The notes below the pieces were generated by a model that saw only the letters and a program-made list of their open reading frames with translations, ran no database searches and was not told the origin of the DNA. From UHGV virus genome UHGV-0231292: 35,493 nt of DNA; one strand, written 5' to 3'. The position numbers and the translations under genes are program-made. Origin of the DNA: a virus. This document shows positions 1 to 35,493 of the stretch, one piece after another; position 1 is the first letter of the stretch; each line of letters starts with the position of its first letter.

Positions 1-22
1 AAAACCACCCGAAGGTGGTTTC
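1..22 (-). terminator. Hairpin (ACCACC-CGAA-GGTGGT) followed by T-run on minus strand; probable terminator of the host tRNA transcript
   Basis: Inverted repeat with flanking A/T runs read directly in sequence; lies just 3' of the tRNA-derived fragment on the same strand. Confidence 0.4.
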
Positions 23-64
23 ACGACACTGCTTATTGCTTTGATTTTATTCTTATCTTTCCCA

Positions 65-120
65 TGGTACCCGGAGCGGGACTTGAACCCGCACAGCGCG
101 AACGCCGAGGGATTTTAAAA
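65..120 (-). other. 3' fragment (anticodon loop to CCA end) of a tRNA-Leu(UAA)-like gene; probable prophage att core
   Basis: Minus strand reads TTTAAAATCCCTCGGCGTTCGCGCTGTGCGGGTTCAAGTCCCGCTCCGGGTACCA with T-stem GCGGG/CCCGC and T-loop TTCAAGT; the 5' half has no acceptor-stem complement, so it is not an intact tRNA. Identity to E. coli leuZ is from memory. Confidence 0.6.
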
Positions 121-225
121 ACTATCAACCACCATTTATAAATCATAACCTTATGATTTTATTAACTTTGAAAATGGCTCTATACAACGCCATTTAAATC
201 TATTGTCACTTTTTATCGCCACTTT

Positions 226-1227
226 TTACCCTCTATTGTCAAAAGGGTTCAATTCAACAGCAGCCTCTAAATGACCTGGAGCAAAATGCGCATAACGCAT
301 AGTCATTTTTATATCGCTATGCCCCAGTATTTTTTGCAACACAAGAATATTTCCGCCCCGCATCATAAAATGACTGGCAAACGTGTGACGTAGCACATGA
401 GTTAATTGCCCATCAGGAAGCTCGATCTTCGCTCTCTTAATTGCAGCGTCAAAAGCCTCATAACATGGTGAAAATAGCGCTCCTCGTTTTTGAGGAAGCA
501 TAGCCTGCAATTGAGGTGAAATCGGTACAGTGCGGTTCTTCTTTCCTTTAGTTTTAACAAATGTGATTCGACCGGGCAGTACTTGAGATTGCTTTAATCC
601 TTCAGCTTCACTCCACCGAGCACCAGTCGCAAGCCCAATACGGACAACAACCCCCAAATCTTTATTCCGTGACTCATCACACGCAATCAGAAGGCGTTCA
701 ATCTCATCTACATACAGAAACGCCAGTTCCTTTTCTTCCTCACGAAACTTGCGAATACCAGTCAGGGGGTTTTCACCAGACCACTCCCCAAGGCGCTTCA
801 GTTCGGCAAAAACAGCATGTAGATATGACTGCTCGCGATTAACGGTTGCTTCACTAAGTTTTTTCTTCCCCTTGGGATTCCATTCTCCTGATAGCCTTCT
901 TTCCCGATAAGTAGCAAACATATTTTTGTCAAACTGAGAAGCAAATGGATCCCCCAGCCTGGAACAAATCGCCTCAAGTTTGACTTTGCGCTCTGCACCA
1001 GAGGACAAGGTTTTACCGTACATCTCAAACCAACGAGCAATCAACTCAGAAAGACGAGGACCAGAACCATCTTGAAACTCGTCTCCAACTCTACTATTCA
1101 TTAAACGGCGCTCATAAGAGAGCGCCTCACTTTTTGTCGCAAACTGTTTACGAATGCGTTTTCCCGATGCCCCGTAGGGATAACATTCGCAAAGCCATTT
1201 ACCTGATGGAATCTTACGAACCGACAT
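226..1227 (-). CDS. int: Tyrosine recombinase / phage integrase
   Basis: 333 aa; C-terminal catalytic region HVLRHTFASHFMMRGGNILVLQKILGHSDIKMTMRYAHF (R..H-x-x-R..Y); adjacent to att core. Confidence 0.9.
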   Translation of the reverse strand: MSVRKIPSGKWLCECYPYGASGKRIRKQFATKSEALSYERRLMNSRVGDEFQDGSGPRLSELIARWFEMYGKTLSSGAERKVKLEAICSRLGDPFASQFDKNMFATYRERRLSGEWNPKGKKKLSEATVNREQSYLHAVFAELKRLGEWSGENPLTGIRKFREEEKELAFLYVDEIERLLIACDESRNKDLGVVVRIGLATGARWSEAEGLKQSQVLPGRITFVKTKGKKNRTVPISPQLQAMLPQKRGALFSPCYEAFDAAIKRAKIELPDGQLTHVLRHTFASHFMMRGGNILVLQKILGHSDIKMTMRYAHFAPGHLEAAVELNPFDNRG

Positions 1228-1232
1228 TTTAG

Positions 1233-1580
1233 TTACTTATCACATAAATCAAATGCAGCCTTAGTGACATCCCCCAGACTCTTTTTTAACCCTGGGGCGG
1301 CATCATTATCTAGCCAAAATGGATTATTGTTATCTAACGGTAACGCACCAAATGTTTTACCTTTTATTCGAGCTAAACCTGTAAGCGCATATAACTTATT
1401 ATCGTCAAAATTCATCACATAAGGATTACCATCAAGACACTGTAATTGAACCTCATCAGTATTAAATGGCCATACCCCATTGAAACTCTCACGTTCAATA
1501 GTTTTAAAAGGCATTGCGACGGCGGAAAAAGAAAACATAGATAAAAAAGTAACTAATAGTTGAACCTTTTTTACTTTCAT
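1233..1580 (-). CDS. Small secreted/periplasmic protein of unknown function (cargo)
   Basis: 115 aa; N-terminal signal-peptide-like segment MKVKKVQLLVTFLSMFSFSAVA; AT-rich codon usage; same strand as int and repressor. Confidence 0.5.
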   Translation of the reverse strand: MKVKKVQLLVTFLSMFSFSAVAMPFKTIERESFNGVWPFNTDEVQLQCLDGNPYVMNFDDNKLYALTGLARIKGKTFGALPLDNNNPFWLDNDAAPGLKKSLGDVTKAAFDLCDK

Positions 1581-8123: not shown

Positions 8124-9083
8124 ATGAAAATTTGTATCGACGACGGCTCCACCAACATCAAGCTGGCATGGACTGAGAACGGCGAACGCCGCAACGCCAT
8201 CAGCCCGAACAGCTTCAAGTCGGAATGGTCTGCGCCGTTCGGTGGCACGCAGCCCGCGAACTACATGCTTGATGGCGTGCGCTATGGTTTTGATCCGGTC
8301 AGCGATCGCTTTGTCCAGACGACCGACACGCAATACCAGTACAGCGATGTGAATATAATTGCCATTCATCACGCGCTGGTCAAATCAGGCATCACACCAC
8401 AGGAAGTGGATGTGGTTGTCACCCTGCCACTGAGCGAGTATTTCGATACAAACGCACAGCCGGACATGGCCAACATCAACCGCAAAAAAGCGAACGTCAT
8501 GCGCCCGGTGGAGTACCAGAACGGCGAAGCATTCACTATCCGTAACGTACGGGTTATGCCTGAATCCATTCCGGCTGGCTTTAAGGCACTGGCTGACATG
8601 AGTCCGTTTGAATCCCTGCTGATTGTGGATTTGGGCGGAACCACTCTGGATGTGGCAAAGGTTCAGGGGCAACTGGCAGGTATCAGCCAGGTGTTTTGCG
8701 ATCCACACGTGGGCGTTTCTCTGATGGCCGATGCCGTACTGTCGGTGATGGCCACTAACGGTATGCGCACCAGTCACCACATCGCCAATACCATTATCGA
8801 ACATCGCCATGATGAAGCCTGGCTGCGCCAGCACATCCACAATGACGCGCATTACGCCAGCCTGATGGCGGTTATTCGTGAAAAGGAAGAAACACTGAAA
8901 CAACGCGTGATCCGCGCGCTGGCGGGTTTTTCGGGTTACGGGCGGGTGATGGTTGTCGGTGGAGGGGCGGAGATTGTGGCACCCGCTATCCGCGAAGCCT
9001 GCGGAGTTAATGCGACTTTCATCGCGGACGGGGTGCCACAGTTTGCTCTGGTTAATGGGCTGTACGCAATGGACAAGGAGTAA
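8124..9083 (+). CDS. parM: Actin-like segregation ATPase (ParM/StbA family)
   Basis: 319 aa; hallmark motifs IDDGSTNIKL, YSDVN, VMPESIPAG, DLGGTTLD, VVGGGAE, LVNGLY match ParM/StbA as recalled. Confidence 0.75.
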   Translation: MKICIDDGSTNIKLAWTENGERRNAISPNSFKSEWSAPFGGTQPANYMLDGVRYGFDPVSDRFVQTTDTQYQYSDVNIIAIHHALVKSGITPQEVDVVVTLPLSEYFDTNAQPDMANINRKKANVMRPVEYQNGEAFTIRNVRVMPESIPAGFKALADMSPFESLLIVDLGGTTLDVAKVQGQLAGISQVFCDPHVGVSLMADAVLSVMATNGMRTSHHIANTIIEHRHDEAWLRQHIHNDAHYASLMAVIREKEETLKQRVIRALAGFSGYGRVMVVGGGAEIVAPAIREACGVNATFIADGVPQFALVNGLYAMDKE

Positions 9084-9087
9084 ACCA

Positions 9088-9399
9088 ATGACGACTCCAA
9101 CCAGACGGATAAGTTTCTATCTGAAGCCCACCGCCGTCAAGAACGAAGGAGAAGCATGCGCCTGGCTGGACAGCCTTACACCAGAAGCCCGCAAAAGCGG
9201 CCAACGCGTGGCTTTTCTGGCCGGGCTGGCACTTCTGAAAATGAATCCGGCAGAGGCTTATCGACTGGCTGCATGGGCTGGTGATGAAGCGTTATCAGTG
9301 ACACAAACCAGGACAGAACGCCCCGCATCACAGCCAGTATCAACCGCACAGATAACCAGTCAGATGGCCGGAAATATCCGGGCGTTATTTCCTGAATAA
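9088..9399 (+). CDS. parR: ParR/StbB-like DNA-binding adaptor
   Basis: 104 aa from the in-frame ATG directly after the parM-like stop; RRISFYLKP...LDSLTPEARKSGQRVAFLAGLALLKMNP...LFPE parallels plasmid R1 ParR as recalled. Confidence 0.55.
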   Translation: MTTPTRRISFYLKPTAVKNEGEACAWLDSLTPEARKSGQRVAFLAGLALLKMNPAEAYRLAAWAGDEALSVTQTRTERPASQPVSTAQITSQMAGNIRALFPE

Positions 9400-21758: not shown

Positions 21759-24518
21759 ATGAGCACGAAATTTAAAACCGTTATCACTACTGCCGGAGCC
21801 GCAAAGCTGGCAGCCGCCACTGTCCCCGGCGGGAAAAAAGTAACCCTGTCTGCAATGGCCGTGGGTGACGGTAATGGCAAATTGCCAGTGCCGGATGCCG
21901 GTCAGACGAAACTGGTGCATGAGGTCTGGCGTCACGCTCTGAATAAAGTCAGCGTGGATAATAAGAATAAAAACTATATCGTGGCTGAACTGGTTGTACC
22001 GCCCGAAGTGGGCGGCTTCTGGATGCGTGAGCTTGGTCTGTATGACGATGCCGGAACACTGATTGCGGTATCCAATATGGCAGAAAGCTATAAGCCAGAA
22101 CTGGCTGAAGGCTCCGGACGTGCGCAGACCTGCCGCATGGTCATTATTGTCAGTAACGTGGCGTCCGTTGAGCTGAGTATTGATGCCAGCACAGTGATGG
22201 CGACGCAGGATTACGTCGATAACAAAATCGCAGAACATGAGCAGTCCCGCCGCCATCCTGACGCCACGCTGACAGAAAAAGGTTTTACTCAGTTAAGCAG
22301 TGCAACAAACAGCACCAGTGAAAGGCTGGCAGCAACGCCAAAGGCAGTAAAAGCAGCCTATGACAATGCTGAAAAACGTATGCAGAAAGACCAGAACGGT
22401 GGCGATATTCCAGATAAGGACGCTTTTCTGGGCAATGTTGGCGTTACCAGCCTGACGTTTATGAAAAACAATGGCGAAATGCCGCTTGATGCTGATCTGA
22501 ATACATTTGGTCCCGTTAAGGCTTATCTGGGGATCTGGTCTAAAGCTACCTCAACTAACGCAACACTGGAGAAAAATTTCCCGGAAGATAATGCTGTCGG
22601 TGTGCTTGAGGTTTTTGCTGCCGGCAATTTTGCAGGTACGCAACGCTTCACCACGAGAGACGGCAATGTATACATACGCAGACTCGCCAATAAGTGGAAT
22701 GGCTCTGATGGTCCGTGGGGCATATGGCGTCACACTCAATCAGCTACCCGCCCTTTGAGTACGACTATAGACCTGAATACGCTTGGAGCCGCCGAGCATC
22801 TTGGTTTATGGCGTAACAGTAGCTCGGCTATAGCTTCATATGAACGCAATTATCCAGAGGAAGGCGGCTTTGCTCAGGGGACGCTTGAGATCCTCGAAGG
22901 CGGGAATTATGGAAGAACGCAACGTTATACCACTCGCCGTGGAAATATGTACGTCCGCTGCCTTGCGGCAAGCTGGGATGCATCAAATCCGCAGTGGGAA
23001 CCGTGGTTAAGAGTCGGTCATCAGTCAGAGAGTCGTTATTACGACGGGGATTTGAATGATGTGACTTCACCAGGTATTTACAGCGTTACAGGTAAAGCGA
23101 CCAACGGTCCAATACTGGACGGAAACGGCGTGACAGTCCTCGGTATTCTGGAAGTGTTGAGGCGCTTTGATGGTGTTAACGTATGGCAGCGTTATACAAC
23201 TGCCGGAACAGGTACAACCCTTAAAGGTCGCACGTTTGAACGCGTTTTTACCGGCAGCTCATGGAGCGAATGGCGGGAAGTTTACACATCTTATTCACTT
23301 CCCCTGAATCTGGGCATCGGTGGCGCAGTGGCAAAACTATCCAGTCTGGACTGGCAGACCTACGATTTTGTGCCGGGCAGTCTGATAACCGTTCGGCTGG
23401 ATAATATGACCAATATTCCCGACGGTATGGACTGGGGCGTCATTGATGGCAACCTGATAAACATCGCAGTTGGTCCGAGTGATGATTCCGGTACGGGGCG
23501 CTCAATGCATGTATGGCGCAGCACTGTAAGTAAAGCGAACTACCGATTTTTTATGGTGCGTATTTCAGGAAATCCGGGAAGCCGCACGATCACAGCAAGA
23601 CGAGTACCAATCATTGACGAAGCCCAGACATGGGGCGCGAAACAGACATTCAGTGCTGGCCTTTCTGGTGAACTGTCCGGCAATGCGGCGACAGCAACAA
23701 AGCTGAAAACAGCCCGTAAAATTAATAACGTTTCGTTTGATGGAACATCAGATATTAACCTGACGCCGAAAAATATTGGTGCATTTGCCTCAGGAAAAAC
23801 AGGAGACACCGTTGCGAATGATAAAGCCGTTGGGTGGAACTGGAGTAGCGGAGCCTATAACGCAACTACTGGTGGGGCATCAACGTTAATTCTTCATTTT
23901 AATATCGGTGAAGGAAGTTGTCCCGCCGCCCAGTTCCGCGTTAATTATAAGAACGGCGGTATTTTTTATCGTTCTGCTCGTGACGGTTACGGATTCGAGG
24001 CTGACTGGTCTGAGTTTTATACCACAACGCGAAAACCTACAGCGGGAGATGTCGGTGCACTGCCGTTATCTGGTGGTCAATTGAATGGTGCTCTGGGTAT
24101 AGGAACATCCAGTGCTCTTGGCGGTAATTCGATTGTTTTGGGTGATAATGACACGGGCTTTAAACAAAATGGTGATGGTAATCTGGATGTTTATGCTAAT
24201 AGCGTCCATATTATGCGCTTTGTCTCGGGAAGTATTCAAAGTAATAAAACCATAAATATTACGGGGCGTGTTAATCCCTCGGATTACGGTAACTTTGATT
24301 CCCGCTATGTCCGGGATATCCGGCTTGGTGGTGCTGCCACATACAAACCTGCGAACAATGGCATGACATGGACACATCAGGCACCGTCCGGGTGTGTATA
24401 TTCCGGCATTATTGTTCAGGATACCGGCTCAAACTCTGCCGATAACATTGGTGGTGTATATTACAGGCCGGTTCAGAAATACATTAACGGGACATGGTAT
24501 AACGTGGCGCAGGTATAA
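21759..24518 (+). CDS. H: Tail fibre protein (P2 gpH-like) with a triplicated central domain and divergent C-terminus
   Basis: 919 aa; conserved N-terminus MSTKFKTVITTAGAAKLAAATVPGGKKV...; three tandem ~90-aa repeats between residues ~244 and 510. Confidence 0.85.
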   Translation: MSTKFKTVITTAGAAKLAAATVPGGKKVTLSAMAVGDGNGKLPVPDAGQTKLVHEVWRHALNKVSVDNKNKNYIVAELVVPPEVGGFWMRELGLYDDAGTLIAVSNMAESYKPELAEGSGRAQTCRMVIIVSNVASVELSIDASTVMATQDYVDNKIAEHEQSRRHPDATLTEKGFTQLSSATNSTSERLAATPKAVKAAYDNAEKRMQKDQNGGDIPDKDAFLGNVGVTSLTFMKNNGEMPLDADLNTFGPVKAYLGIWSKATSTNATLEKNFPEDNAVGVLEVFAAGNFAGTQRFTTRDGNVYIRRLANKWNGSDGPWGIWRHTQSATRPLSTTIDLNTLGAAEHLGLWRNSSSAIASYERNYPEEGGFAQGTLEILEGGNYGRTQRYTTRRGNMYVRCLAASWDASNPQWEPWLRVGHQSESRYYDGDLNDVTSPGIYSVTGKATNGPILDGNGVTVLGILEVLRRFDGVNVWQRYTTAGTGTTLKGRTFERVFTGSSWSEWREVYTSYSLPLNLGIGGAVAKLSSLDWQTYDFVPGSLITVRLDNMTNIPDGMDWGVIDGNLINIAVGPSDDSGTGRSMHVWRSTVSKANYRFFMVRISGNPGSRTITARRVPIIDEAQTWGAKQTFSAGLSGELSGNAATATKLKTARKINNVSFDGTSDINLTPKNIGAFASGKTGDTVANDKAVGWNWSSGAYNATTGGASTLILHFNIGEGSCPAAQFRVNYKNGGIFYRSARDGYGFEADWSEFYTTTRKPTAGDVGALPLSGGQLNGALGIGTSSALGGNSIVLGDNDTGFKQNGDGNLDVYANSVHIMRFVSGSIQSNKTINITGRVNPSDYGNFDSRYVRDIRLGGAATYKPANNGMTWTHQAPSGCVYSGIIVQDTGSNSADNIGGVYYRPVQKYINGTWYNVAQV

Positions 24519-24521
24519 TTT

Positions 24522-25049
24522 ATGCAGCATTTAAAAAATATTACGGCGGGTAATCCAAAAACGGTTGAACAATATCAATTGACAAAAGACTTTGATGTTG
24601 TCTGGTTTTTTTCAGAAGATGGTAAGAACTGGTACGAAGAACAAAAGTATTTTGCTGATGACACGCTAAAAATAGCGTACGACAAAGATAATATCATCCG
24701 CTATGTGGAAAAGGATGTGACAGCTATCAGACCGGATGGATTAAGTGTTGTTGAAGTGGCGGATATTACTGCTAACCGACGGGCGGACATTTCAGGGAAC
24801 TGGATGTTTAAGGACGGTACAGTGATTAAACGCATTTATACGGCAGAGGAATTGCTGCAGCAGGCAGAAAACCGGAAAGCCAGACTTCTTGCAGATGCTG
24901 AATCCGTGATTTTGCCACTGGAGCGCGCTGTCAGGCTGAACATGGCAACAGATGAGGAGCGTAGCCGACTGGAAGCATGGGAACGCTACAGTGTTCTGGT
25001 CAGCCGTGTGGATACGGCAAATCCCGAATGGCCACAAAAGCCTGAGTAA
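24522..25049 (+). CDS. G: Tail fibre assembly chaperone (P2 gpG-like)
   Basis: 175 aa; immediately downstream of H; AT-richer codon usage typical of the exchangeable fibre module. Confidence 0.75.
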
Positions 25050-25263
25050 AAATTAAGCTCCGATATCGGGCCTTCTCTCATTCTGGTTGTTCGGGAAACG
25101 TTACTGGCAGGCCGGAGGTGTCTGTGGATTCGACTTTCTACGCGTAGAGCATCCACTCGGTTAATTTTTGTTTATTCTCGTCGGAAATGATGTCCAGCCG
25201 TAGCTGTGAGTCCCATAGGCGATATACAGGCCGAAGAAACAACCAGGCAGATCAAGGAAAAAG

Positions 25264-31035: not shown

Positions 31036-32136
31036 ATGACCGATACCACCATGCAATTGCTCAGTCAGAGCACAGACCCCGTGAAAATGCCGGATTTTGA
31101 TATTCTCGCGGAGGGGGAAACACTGTCCAGCGTGGCAGAGCGCCTGATGAGCCTGTCACTGACCGACAACCGGGGATTTGAAGCGGACCTGCTCACCATC
31201 ACGCTGGATGATGCGGATGGTCAGTTGCAGCTACCGCCACGGGGCGCGCGCCTGACGGTTCTCATTGGCTGGAAAGGAGAACCGCTGACAGAAAAAGGCA
31301 CTTACATTGTTGATGAAATCGCTCACGAAGGACCGCCGGACAGGCTGACTGTTTCAGCCAGAAGCGCAGATTTTCGGGATGAATTTAACGTTAAACGTGA
31401 GGTGTCCTGGCATGATGTGACCGTTGAGCGCGTGGTATCCGCCATCGCTCATCGGTACGGTCTGAAACCACAAATCAGCGAAATGCTGATGGATATTGAA
31501 ATCGACCACGCCGACCAGACCGAAGAAAGCGACATGTCCTTCCTTACGCGCATGGCGGAAATGCTGGGCGCAATCACTACGGTAAAAAGCAGTAATCTGT
31601 TATTCATCATGCCAGGCGGTGGCGTGAACGCACAGGGCCAGCCGTTGCCATCGTTCGCCATCACGCGCAGCAGTGGCGATCGCCATCAGTTCCGCATTGC
31701 TGACCGCGAAGCGTATACGGGGGTACGTGCTTACTGGCTTGATCTTAATTACGGGAAAAAGAAAAAAGTCAGCGTGAAACGCCGCAAACCGAAAAAGGAG
31801 AAAAGCAGCAGCCGTGAAGGTGACTATATGGAAGGTGCGGAAGGCAACGTGTTTGTGTTACGCAAGACTTATCAGAACGAGCAGGCAGCAAGACGTGCAG
31901 CGGCGGCAAAGTGGCAGCAGCTACAACGCGGAGCCGCATCATTCTCCATCACGCTGGCGCGTGGACGCGCAGAACTCTATCCCGAAATGCATGGCACGGT
32001 GACAGGCTTCAAAAGTGACATCGATAATCAGGACTGGATTATTGCAAAAGCCGAGCACACCATTGATAACAGCGGCTTTACCACACAGCTTGAGCTTGAA
32101 GCAAAAATCCCGGAATGGATAGCAGAAACAGAATGA
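31036..32136 (+). CDS. D: Late control / tail protein D (P2 gpD-like)
   Basis: Start at the ATG after GGGAGGG; LTDNRGFEADLLTITLDDADGQLQLPPRGA, SARSADFR, WHD, basic KKKKVSVKRRKPKKEK stretch, GFTTQLELE match gpD. Confidence 0.85.
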   Translation: MTDTTMQLLSQSTDPVKMPDFDILAEGETLSSVAERLMSLSLTDNRGFEADLLTITLDDADGQLQLPPRGARLTVLIGWKGEPLTEKGTYIVDEIAHEGPPDRLTVSARSADFRDEFNVKREVSWHDVTVERVVSAIAHRYGLKPQISEMLMDIEIDHADQTEESDMSFLTRMAEMLGAITTVKSSNLLFIMPGGGVNAQGQPLPSFAITRSSGDRHQFRIADREAYTGVRAYWLDLNYGKKKKVSVKRRKPKKEKSSSREGDYMEGAEGNVFVLRKTYQNEQAARRAAAAKWQQLQRGAASFSITLARGRAELYPEMHGTVTGFKSDIDNQDWIIAKAEHTIDNSGFTTQLELEAKIPEWIAETE

Positions 32137-32535
32137 GCAAATTAGATGTATTGACTCAAACCAGAACTGACACACTCACAGCACAGTGCCAGACCCAATC
32201 TGGCAGCCCGCTTTGTGCCTAGAGCAGGTGTTGCTTATGTAACAGTTAATCCACGGATAGTGGTCATGAATGCTGGTTGAAGTTGTATTGCCATGAGTGG
32301 TCAATTAGGGACTCACTTATTATCGCGTGCTCACCATTGATGGGTAAGATCATGCATTTCGGCTACTGTACTTCGCGAATCCTCCGCACACAGGCAACAC
32401 CTGATTTAAGAACAGAGGGAGATGATGACGCAAGGAAGATTTATTATCGTGCATGTGGCAGATGATCTTTTAGCTGCCGGAGTGATAAATTACACCTATT
32501 TTCGATAAGTGTTTTTGTTATAGAACATTAATTTC

Positions 32536-33675
32536 GTGGGAAACAATAAAGTGAAATTAGGAAGAAATGATAAGTGCTGGTGTAATTCAGGACTTAAGTA
32601 TAAAAAGTGCCATCTTGGTCGAGATCGTGAAACTCCGGTATCCAAAGCCGAGGCACTGAAATTTTCAAAGTCTCTCTCGCAGAGAAAGGCATGTTATGCG
32701 CCAGCATCCATGCACGAAGATTGTGATAAACGCATCGTTCAGGCGCATACGATATCTAAGAGCAGTAGCCTTAAGGCGATCGCCGACTCCAGCAATCACG
32801 TCATGGGGGTGATAATGAACTTAGCAAGCCTGATGAGAAACAACGGAAAATGGCTTCCCGAGAAGATCGGTATCAATCAGGCATCCACTTTTACAGGATT
32901 TTGTGCAGTTCATGACAGAATCTTATTTTCATGCCTAGAGAACGAAAAATTTACAGGCACGGACGAGCAGTGCTTTGCCTTAATGTTTCGTTCATTGTCT
33001 AAAGAAATTTATGCCAAAGAAGGGGGAGTGCTATCTTCTGATTTTGCTAAAAATGCCGATAAAGGAAAGCTACAAGTTGAACAGTATTATATTCAGAAAT
33101 TAATCGACCAGCACCAAAGTGGCTTAAATGCAGCAATAATTGAATTAAATAATCTTAAAACTAGCCTCGACCGCATCCTACTTAGCAGGCAATTTTCAGA
33201 AATTGAAAGTGTTATCTTCACTTTTGCAGAGCCTTTACCAATTGTAGTTTCGTCAATTCTTTCACCGGAGAGGGATTTCGATGGGACCAAAATTCAGGAT
33301 TTGAGCGATCTTACAGTGTCGGCGGAACAAGTATGTTTCAATGCTTTTTCCTGCGGAGGTAAGGGATATGTAGTGTTCAGTTGGCTGAGAACTTCAACAA
33401 TTATCAGACGTTTTATACGGACACTAATTAAGATCCCAGCTAACAGGATGTTCAATACCCTTCTGTATTTTTTCTTCACAAAGGCCGAAAATACATATTC
33501 ATCCCCTGAGTGGTGGGACAGGCTCAGTGATAAACAGCGAGAGAATATCGGCAACATGATTATGTCAGGGGTTGAATTTTTTGGCAGACCTACATCACAG
33601 GTTGATCATTCCGTTGATTATAACGCCGCTGCACTTGAAGAGATAACATGCAGCAACAACGAAATTTGCAGCTGA
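32536..33675 (+). CDS. SEC-C metal-binding-motif protein of unknown function in an AT-rich island
   Basis: 379 aa; N-terminal CWCNSGLKYKKCH matches the SecA/YecA SEC-C zinc motif (C-x-C-x8-C-H); non-ATG start (GTG at 32536 or 32551); AT-rich versus flanking phage genes. Confidence 0.55.
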   Translation: MGNNKVKLGRNDKCWCNSGLKYKKCHLGRDRETPVSKAEALKFSKSLSQRKACYAPASMHEDCDKRIVQAHTISKSSSLKAIADSSNHVMGVIMNLASLMRNNGKWLPEKIGINQASTFTGFCAVHDRILFSCLENEKFTGTDEQCFALMFRSLSKEIYAKEGGVLSSDFAKNADKGKLQVEQYYIQKLIDQHQSGLNAAIIELNNLKTSLDRILLSRQFSEIESVIFTFAEPLPIVVSSILSPERDFDGTKIQDLSDLTVSAEQVCFNAFSCGGKGYVVFSWLRTSTIIRRFIRTLIKIPANRMFNTLLYFFFTKAENTYSSPEWWDRLSDKQRENIGNMIMSGVEFFGRPTSQVDHSVDYNAAALEEITCSNNEICS

Positions 33676-33964
33676 ATGTTTACATGCTGTTAGAAAAAGC
33701 GGGCTGAACAATCATTTCGGGATTGTAACAGATAAGATGGCACTGCCCGCTTGCTTCCCGATATGCACCTCAGCCAATAAACTTATGTAAGCAACCGATT
33801 TCCATTTATGCGGAGGTTATCAAAGTTGTTGGAGTTGCGAACTTCCGCTCTTCGCACAAAGCGTACCGCTAGGTTTGATTGTATTCTGGCTGCGCAAACT
33901 GTCAGTTGGAGTCTGAGCTATTACAACTTAGAATAGCGGCAGCACCACGTTAAGGGAGGTCGCT

Positions 33965-34225
33965 ATGTTCCGTTGTCCGCTTTGTGGCGCATCTGCCCGA
34001 ATCCGCACCAGTCGTCCGGAAAACGATTCAAACACTGTGCGGCAAAAGTATTACCAGTGTAACAACCTGGAATGCGGCGTATGCTTCTCAACACTGGAAG
34101 CTTTCCATAAATTCACATCAAAACACGCCTCCGGCGTTCACTCTTCGGAAGGTATCCCGTGGCATGAGCTGCCAGCTTCACACAGGGGAAACAATCAGAT
34201 GAGTTTGCCTTTACCTCAGAATTAA
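33965..34225 (+). CDS. ogr: Late gene transcription activator, zinc-finger (P2 Ogr / Delta-like)
   Basis: 86 aa; MFRCPLCGASARIRTSR...YYQCNNLECGVCF Cys4 finger (C-x2-C-x22-C-x4-C); RBS AAGGGAGG. Confidence 0.85.
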   Translation: MFRCPLCGASARIRTSRPENDSNTVRQKYYQCNNLECGVCFSTLEAFHKFTSKHASGVHSSEGIPWHELPASHRGNNQMSLPLPQN

Positions 34226-34415
34226 CAGGCAGAATTGCCGGAGTAACAAAAAAACGATAGATTACCCGCGGGTGCCTTTCGGCTGATGGTCGGAGGAATA
34301 CCCGAAGGCCGGATGTGGAAAGGCCCCGGAAAACATTTCTGTTTAACCGAGGCCCTAACATATCTACCTTAAGCAAGTGATAGGTTAGCGCCTCTCCAAC
34401 AAAGGAGCAAGCGCT

Positions 34416-34556
34416 ATGTCGCAAAAATCGCTTACAGCCATCACGTTCTGCGTGACGGTAATCCTCATCATCTGGATGCTACACGGTTCGCTGTGTGAAA
34501 TACGGATGAGCTTCTGGGGAGCGGAGTTTGCGGCGTTCTTACAGTGTAAGCAGTAA
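34416..34556 (+). CDS. hok: Hok/Gef-family type I toxin (46 aa)
   Basis: MSQKSLTAITFCVTVILIIWMLHGSLCEIRMSFWGAEFAAFLQCKQ: TM helix plus SLCEIR...AAF signature; RBS AAAGGAG; below ORF-track cutoff. Confidence 0.65.
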   Translation: MSQKSLTAITFCVTVILIIWMLHGSLCEIRMSFWGAEFAAFLQCKQ

Positions 34557-34644
34557 GGAAACCGCGACGGGGGAGCAATCCCCCGTCAATCGGTTGCTAA
34601 GGTTGGCTGAAGTGGCACCCTATCTCACAGACATGAACAACAAA

Positions 34645-34676
34645 CCCGCAGCGTAAGAACTGCGGGTTTTCTTTTT
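34645..34676 (+). terminator. Rho-independent terminator of the hok-like transcript
   Basis: CCCGCAG-CGTAAGAA-CTGCGGG followed by TTTTCTTTTT. Confidence 0.6.
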
Positions 34677-34744
34677 GGAACAATCACTAGCTAGTGTACC
34701 GTTAACGGCACATAATGCTCGCACAACAAACCTGTTAAAAGAGA

Positions 34745-35026
34745 TTACTCAGCATTCTCCTGCTTCCATTGCCGGATCATTTCATCGGTAACATCACCCT
34801 CATAACATACCACGTCATACCCTCCATTACGGCTATATGCACTGCGTCCACCACATCTACTACCATTCCTTGCATGATTATAAGGACACGCACAATTGCC
34901 TGGATAAGATTCAATGGATTCTTTAATTATTTCTTTTTTGATCTGAGCATCAGACTTTCCTGTTGCTGCATATCCACTAAAAGATACTAAACAAAGGCAG
35001 ATTGCCATTAATAAACCACATCGCAT
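34745..35026 (-). CDS. Small secreted Cys-rich protein of unknown function
   Basis: Start set to the internal Met giving signal peptide MRCGLLMAICLCLVSFSGYAA; mature part has 4 Cys (NCACPYNHARNGSRCGG...VVCYEG); AT-rich. Confidence 0.4.
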   Translation of the reverse strand: MRCGLLMAICLCLVSFSGYAATGKSDAQIKKEIIKESIESYPGNCACPYNHARNGSRCGGRSAYSRNGGYDVVCYEGDVTDEMIRQWKQENAE

Positions 35027-35307
35027 ACCGATACACTCTATTACTAACCAATCATAGCCCACATCATAAAATCGAGATGAGGAGTACAATACCTTTAACA
35101 AGAAGGTGTCATAACGATAATATGTCGTGCAATTCATCAAAAAAAAGATCTATATCAAAGAGATAGAACTCTTATCAGTGCTTCAGACATCGGCATTCGA
35201 GGCAGCAGAAAAACAGTAAATCTGACGAATTTGCCTTTTCCCAAGATGTTGTCAGATTAAAAAGATAGATTAGCGCAGGTACCTGTTGGTGGATTGCAGG
35301 AGGAAAA

Positions 35308-35412
35308 ATGAAGTCGAGTGAAAAAATCCCAGAAAAATTTTTGTTTAACAGAGGTCCTGGTTCACTATGCGAAATACGGAGGAGCTGCAGAAGAATTCTG
35401 CTTAGAGTTTAA
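35308..35412 (+). pseudogene. Degenerate hok-like paralogue lacking the transmembrane helix
   Basis: 34-codon ORF with RBS GCAGGAGG; ...RGPGSLCEIRRSC... and nucleotide similarity to the hok core at 34416-34556 (GGTTCnCTnTGnGAAATACGGAnGAGCT). Confidence 0.35.
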
Positions 35413-35493
35413 ACAGCACGTGCACTACCATTGTTTCTGCATATCGCCACACCATCGCCACTCTACCGCCATTGCACAAAATACAAATACGAA

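Follow-up and report, generated by a model that had tools for sequence, protein, structure and literature searches.

A leuZ attachment site carrying the tRNA trailer and operon terminator at the left end of a probable P2-like prophage of Escherichia coli

P2-like phages of the 186 type tend to integrate in tRNA genes, and their integrases bind arm sites with the consensus tgccGCCActt (PMC3448106). The long common cores of these phages restore the tRNA and reach past it by variable lengths, with 50 and 110 nt reported for two prophages (PMC3448106). In E. coli, leuZ is listed among the prophage sites shared in STEC O121:H19 (PMC8767318). The trailer of this gene, 3'ETS-leuZ, is freed by RNase E and acts as a sponge for the small RNAs RyhB and RybB (PMC6191717, PMC13501541), and its 3' end carries the terminator (PMC6191717). 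Within a limited literature set, papers were found on leuZ as a prophage site and on 3'ETS-leuZ as a sponge, and no paper connecting the two.

The sequence analysed here is the viral genome UHGV-0231292, 35,493 nucleotides in length (hereafter, the window). It is very probably one att-to-att unit of a P2-like (Peduoviridae, Xuanwuvirus-like) prophage residing in leuZ, the last gene of the glyW-cysT-leuZ operon. A preliminary description of the window had recognized a 3' fragment of tRNA-Leu(UAA) at 65-120 as the left prophage junction and, having found no second copy of it, had suggested either that the right boundary lies further on or that one att site has been lost.

Comparison with E. coli K-12 showed that window 65-119, on the minus strand, is identical to nucleotides 33-87 of the tRNA-Leu(UAA) gene leuZ at all 55 positions. 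Because ARAGORN places the leuZ anticodon at nucleotides 35-37, the seven-nucleotide loop corresponds to nucleotides 33-39 (TTTAAAA); the fragment therefore opens with the anticodon loop, from its first nucleotide on, and ends with the CCA. The earlier assignment holds apart from its last base, considering that the first mismatch to K-12 is found at window 120, and the core is indeed related to a host tRNA. Identity to K-12 covers all of window 1-119 (119/119), and window 1-64 matches, without a mismatch, 64 nt of the small RNA 3'ETS-leuZ (b4759), for which the K-12 annotation gives a length of 67 nt. The left end thus comprises the following features:

65 to 119, minus strand: 3' fragment of the leuZ tRNA (anticodon loop, variable arm, T arm, 3' strand of the acceptor stem, CCA), not called as a tRNA.
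113 to 119, no strand assigned: anticodon-loop heptamer, the inner edge of the attL/attR identity, whose boundary is at the start of the loop; putative region of Int strand exchange.
1 to 64, minus strand: 3'ETS-leuZ, the trailer of leuZ (64/64 to the annotated K-12 ncRNA; function according to PMC6191717 and PMC13501541).
1 to 21, minus strand: Rho-independent terminator stem-loop of leuZ (GAAACCACC-TTCG-GGTGGTTTT), identical to K-12; the identical right copy in E. coli SCU-124 was called terminator-like.

Neither ARAGORN nor Rfam returned a tRNA anywhere in the window, region 65-150 included, which is the expected outcome for a fragment that lacks the 5' half. A 28-mer of the fragment occurs once in the window with three mismatches permitted, against 0.00 occurrences expected from shuffled sequences. 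Chance similarity and a degenerate phage-encoded tRNA were also considered, and were ruled out because the identity to the host is 100% and extends through the trailer, which is not part of the tRNA. It should be noted that in Rfam the fragment and the trailer gave no match at the gathering thresholds, and sub-threshold noise only at E values up to 1, so that the identity of the small RNA has no independent support beyond the K-12 annotation. A sensitive self-comparison of window 1-125 revealed no second copy of the core elsewhere in the window (best other match 12 nt, E = 0.2), in agreement with the preliminary search of 32137-35493.

The best-matching chromosome, that of E. coli SCU-124 (NZ_CP051706.1), differs from the window at only 2 of 35,493 positions, namely 31 and 28693. 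In this strain the prophage is bounded by a direct repeat of 121 bp (1000-1120 and 36493-36613 of the SCU-124 locus L002, whose coordinates minus 1001 give the window position), and the two copies differ by one SNP (120/121); in the O26:H11 strain 11368 the repeat is exact (121/121 bp). The period of the SCU-124 repeat is 35,493 bp, which is the length of the window. The window starts two bases into the left copy and ends two bases into the right one; being exactly one repeat period long, it lacks the second copy by construction. The repeat also shows that the 56-bp core proposed earlier, although correctly derived from a host tRNA, was too short, because the trailer and terminator in window 1-64 are part of it. 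For the same reason, the proposed order of phage DNA, core and host terminator is correct as an order, but the trailer and terminator assigned to the host belong to the repeat too.

The intact tRNA-Leu(UAA) gene of SCU-124 is located at 36559-36645 of the same locus (window-equivalent 35558-35644), as indicated by both ARAGORN and RefSeq. It starts 65 bases after the end of the window, and is followed by the genes for tRNA-Cys (cysT) and tRNA-Gly (glyW), the prophage being placed between yecA and leuZ-cysT-glyW. The full tRNA and the second core, for which a search of the flanking sequence had been recommended, were therefore found in a chromosome with two mismatches to the window. In SCU-124 and in O26:H11 11368 alike, an intact leuZ-cysT-glyW, with a leuZ identical to that of K-12, lies at the other end of the prophage. 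This confirms that the junction at the left end (phage DNA with int, 3' part of the tRNA, leuZ terminator) is the one distal to the intact tRNA, as had been deduced. The empty site is seen in K-12 MG1655, where yecA, 3'ETS-leuZ and leuZ are contiguous and present in a single copy. Among 5,426 complete E. coli genomes, the int-side junction was present in 525 and the other junction in 615. These results support the presence of a second copy and an intact leuZ just past window 35493, as judged from genomes that are nearly, not exactly, identical to the window. One of the two earlier alternatives placed the right boundary beyond the window; this is true of the second copy, which starts at window-equivalent 35492, but the phage-specific DNA ends inside, at 35491.

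The rest of the window has the gene order of P2 (int, repressor, replication endonuclease, portal, terminase, scaffold, P2-family capsid, lysis, tail genes, D, ogr), according to the RefSeq annotation of the near-identical locus and to the layout of the open reading frames. In pairwise comparisons with integrases of other phages, identity was 52-56% to those of F108, ENT90 and PSP3, as against some 39% to W-phi / P2-type integrases; by these values, it is probably a 186-type integrase. The features of the two arms are listed below:

226 to 1227, minus strand: tyrosine integrase of 333 aa, reading toward the core (Pfam Int_N, 5e-32; Phage_integrase, 2e-22).
120 to 225, no strand assigned: P' arm, from the core to the int stop codon, with direct repeats and an inverted repeat.
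185 to 195 (CAACGCCATTT), 201 to 213 (TATTGTCACTTTT) and 214 to 226 (TATCGCCACTTTT), same orientation as in the P arm: direct repeats of the P' arm, matching the 186-type consensus.
140 to 148 and 151 to 159: 9-bp inverted repeat in the P' arm.
35443 to 35472, plus strand: direct repeats of the P arm, three units phased by 11 bp (ATCGCCAC at 35443, ATCGCCAC at 35454, ACCGCCAT at 35465).
33924 to 35491, no strand assigned: right arm of the phage, phage-specific DNA to 35491, contiguous with window 1 in the attP-form contig described below.
33965 to 34225, plus strand: ogr (annotation; Ogr_Delta Pfam match).
34416 to 34556, plus strand: hok/gef, a toxin of the Hok/Gef family (annotation), in phage DNA between ogr and the att core.
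34745 to 35026, minus strand: small open reading frame with no annotated function, in phage DNA between ogr and the att core.
35492 to 35493, no strand assigned: first two bases (AA) of the second repeat copy, from the SCU-124 repeat coordinates; the remainder lies past the window.

On both sides of the core, the arm repeats match the published consensus. The unit ATCGCCAC occurs nine times in the window, versus 1.39 occurrences expected, and three of the nine are in the att arms.

Several other genes of the element deserve mention. Two cargo-like genes lie between the repressor and int, at 1233-2260 on the minus strand, and from their position would be co-transcribed with them in a lysogen; one encodes a DUF2511 protein, the other a membrane protein of 216 aa without a Pfam match. 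In the early region, at 8124-9083 and 9088-9399 on the plus strand, the annotation gives a ParM-like segregation ATPase and a partition/stability protein; partition functions of the plasmid type are unexpected in an integrating phage. The segment 32147-33923, between D and ogr, contains an open reading frame (32536-33675, plus strand) for a 379-aa 'YecA family protein' with a SEC-C motif, and the host neighbour of the prophage is also yecA; the whole segment is absent from the attP-form contig, which indicates a variable cargo insert. The version of the prophage in O26:H11 11368 has genes that the window lacks (23307-25184 and 31408-31980 of its locus, L001): the lysis genes are followed by one for a DUF6645 protein, and the tail fibre genes by one for a serine O-acetyltransferase, which marks these places as variable cargo hotspots.

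A contig of 34,888 bp that is 95-98% identical to the window (IMGVR_UViG_2548876853_000002) joins window 35490 directly to window 1, so that a P arm, the complete 119-bp core and a P' arm follow each other in the configuration of an attP site. Because the two arms are joined across the whole core, 33924-35491 is phage DNA, and the phage carries the full trailer and terminator. In principle, the contig could instead reflect a tandem lysogen or an assembler path through a collapsed repeat. An exact-pattern scan of the viral contigs for the attP of the window phage itself (its P arm, core and P' arm) gave no hit, and a looser scan with the core/P' junction gave 15 loci, one of them in attP form.

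The attP-form contig bears on the question of whether the 66 bp of identity beyond the tRNA are carried by the phage, or are due to gene conversion between the two copies after integration. Conversion would account for the copies within a genome being identical or one SNP apart. However, the contig has all 119 bp between two phage arms, and two unrelated lambdoid phages bear their own, diverged (88%) copies, so that the block travels with phages; we consider gene conversion very improbable.

Even less credit can be given to the idea that the second att site has been lost and the prophage locked in. Its one argument is the lack of a second copy inside the window, which, however, stops two bases into the place where that copy starts in near-identical genomes, and both copies are intact there. 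In addition, the core is found at two places in all 25 best-matching genomes listed, the integrase is full length, both arms carry their repeats, and a relative in attP form exists.

Finally, the window could be an excised, circular or virion genome opened at the att core, in which case 1-119 would be the phage-borne attP copy and the end of the sequence would join its start. A length of one repeat period with both ends at a repeat boundary would agree with this, as would the whole block in attP form in the contig described above and the equivalent 121-bp attP in the virion-derived genome of mEp390. The same boundaries, however, would be those of a prophage trimmed at the start of attL on one side and just short of attR on the other, and no record in the phage collection exceeds 98.2% identity to the window, while chromosomes match it with two differences or fewer. 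We therefore regard an excised genome as unlikely. The window has evidently been cut as one att-to-att unit, or as a circular genome opened at the core, and the sequence alone cannot tell which; the site and the mechanism are the same in both cases.

Integration of a prophage at leuZ can be pictured as follows. The attP of the phage would carry a 121-bp block identical to the host, made up of leuZ nucleotides 33-87, the whole trailer (3'ETS-leuZ) and the terminator. Int would bind the direct repeats of the two arms and recombine attP with leuZ, the anticodon loop being the most likely place. The complete tRNA, trailer and terminator would be rebuilt at the far end, just past window 35493, and the displaced original 3' half of the host gene would stay beside int as window 1-119, which would then be the host-derived copy. 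Strand exchange is placed in or next to the anticodon loop because identity stops there, and stops within 2 nt of it in the unrelated phages mEp390 and Fostie. In lysogens of a Citrobacter/Buttiauxella-like host (L011, L018 and L019, compared at the int-side copy with empty Citrobacter and Buttiauxella sites), that copy combines a host-type trailer with an E. coli-type T stem. This pattern may mean that the crossover lies elsewhere than in the anticodon loop, or that the leuZ of the host has the E. coli-type T stem.

On the minus strand, the lysogenic operon (repressor, membrane protein, DUF2511 protein, int) would read through the tRNA fragment and end at the displaced leuZ terminator; a terminator scan revealed no other terminator-like site between int and that stem-loop. 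The T-tail of the leuZ terminator runs on beyond window position 1. In a simple terminator scan the left copy was called neither in the window nor in the longer SCU-124 sequence, and the identical right copy was called. The failure in the window is explained by the window start, which cuts the T-tail, and that in SCU-124 by the scan rule, which requires five T after the stem.

The displaced trailer is separated from the glyW-cysT-leuZ operon by the whole prophage, and consequently does not have the context of the native RNase E precursor; the second 3'ETS-leuZ copy, past the window end, retains the native operon context. Because the displaced copy is at the 3' end of the repressor-int operon with no predicted terminator between, it could be transcribed in lysogens. 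If processed to an extra sponge, it could shift the thresholds of RyhB (iron) and RybB (envelope stress), a conjecture to which we assign a low probability. Window 31 (1032 of the SCU-124 locus) falls in the part of the displaced 3'ETS that is complementary to RyhB; the base is A in the left copy of SCU-124, and G in its right copy, in K-12 and in the window. Judging from the sequences compared here, phages that target leuZ would carry a complete 3'ETS-leuZ in their attP, so that each lysogen, i.e. about 10% of complete E. coli genomes, would have two copies.

Both the phage type and the insertion site are thus already known, the left end of the window being a tRNA att site of the textbook kind, and its recognition as such is correct but ordinary. 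The apparent one-sidedness of the att site is a clean negative: it stems from the way the window was cut, and not from a decayed or trapped prophage. What is duplicated is a whole functional 3' module, composed of half a tRNA, a regulatory sponge RNA and an operon terminator. The occurrence of the same module in two unrelated phage lineages fits selection on phages to leave the expression of the host tRNA operon undisturbed. One mildly interesting point is that leuZ lysogens are natural two-copy strains for the 3'ETS-leuZ sponge.

Other sequences at this site deserve comment. At three loci from viral collections (L008 9283-10720, L009 and L014), a mEp390-like excisionase (DUF4224) and integrase (64% identical) abut a core copy that is followed by a P2-like int. 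These loci appear to represent tandem lysogeny at leuZ, with two unrelated prophages sharing one att repeat. In addition, four 'vB_EcoM' records of 20-27 kb, such as vB_EcoM-705R4 (ON470624.1; L007 798-916 onward), begin with yecA and the same 119-bp block, followed by the tail gene D on the opposite strand and not by int. They look like rearranged or truncated leuZ-site prophages that were deposited as complete phage genomes.

Compared with the small RNA of K-12 (b4759; Lalaouna et al. 2015, as cited in PMC6191717), the window copy of 3'ETS-leuZ has both the RyhB-pairing stretch and the terminator; unlike it, the window copy comes after a phage int and a truncated tRNA, and not after the glyW-cysT-leuZ transcript.

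The lambdoid phages mEp390, with an annotated 121-bp attP, and Fostie share with the window phage a block made up of the leuZ 3' part, trailer and terminator, and an identity boundary at the anticodon loop, 2 nt off. In contrast, their integrase, only 21% identical to that of the window, is encoded on the opposite side of the core, beside the restored tRNA. The block itself has 88% identity and was probably copied from another enterobacterial host. In the blocks of mEp390 (L004 2499-2619) and Fostie (L005 2501-2617), a C-G pair of the T stem is replaced by U-A, a compensatory change, and the terminator loop has GAAA in place of UUCG. The T-stem variant is that of the native leuZ in Buttiauxella and a Citrobacter (L023-L025), which suggests acquisition in another genus.

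Among named phages, the closest is Escherichia phage 520873 (Peduoviridae, Xuanwuvirus; NC_049344.1), which is 98.2% identical over window 1-1300 and is itself a prophage cut with the same yecA flank, the same site and the same left junction. It differs in that its integrase is annotated in two pieces and in that the record includes host flank.

With the 186-type P2-like phages as a group (186 in tRNA-Ile, PhiESP and PhiKPN in tRNA-Met, HP1 in tRNA-Leu; Nilsson and Haggard-Ljungquist 2011, PMC3448106), the window element shares the P2 gene order, an int that lies beside attP and reads toward it, direct repeats of the tgccGCCActt type in both arms, and a long core that restores the tRNA and continues beyond its 3' end to a varying degree (50-110 nt reported). 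It differs from them in its target, E. coli leuZ, in an integrase only 52-56% identical to those of the nearest named phages, and in a 121-bp block that holds a complete trailer-derived small RNA and the operon terminator.
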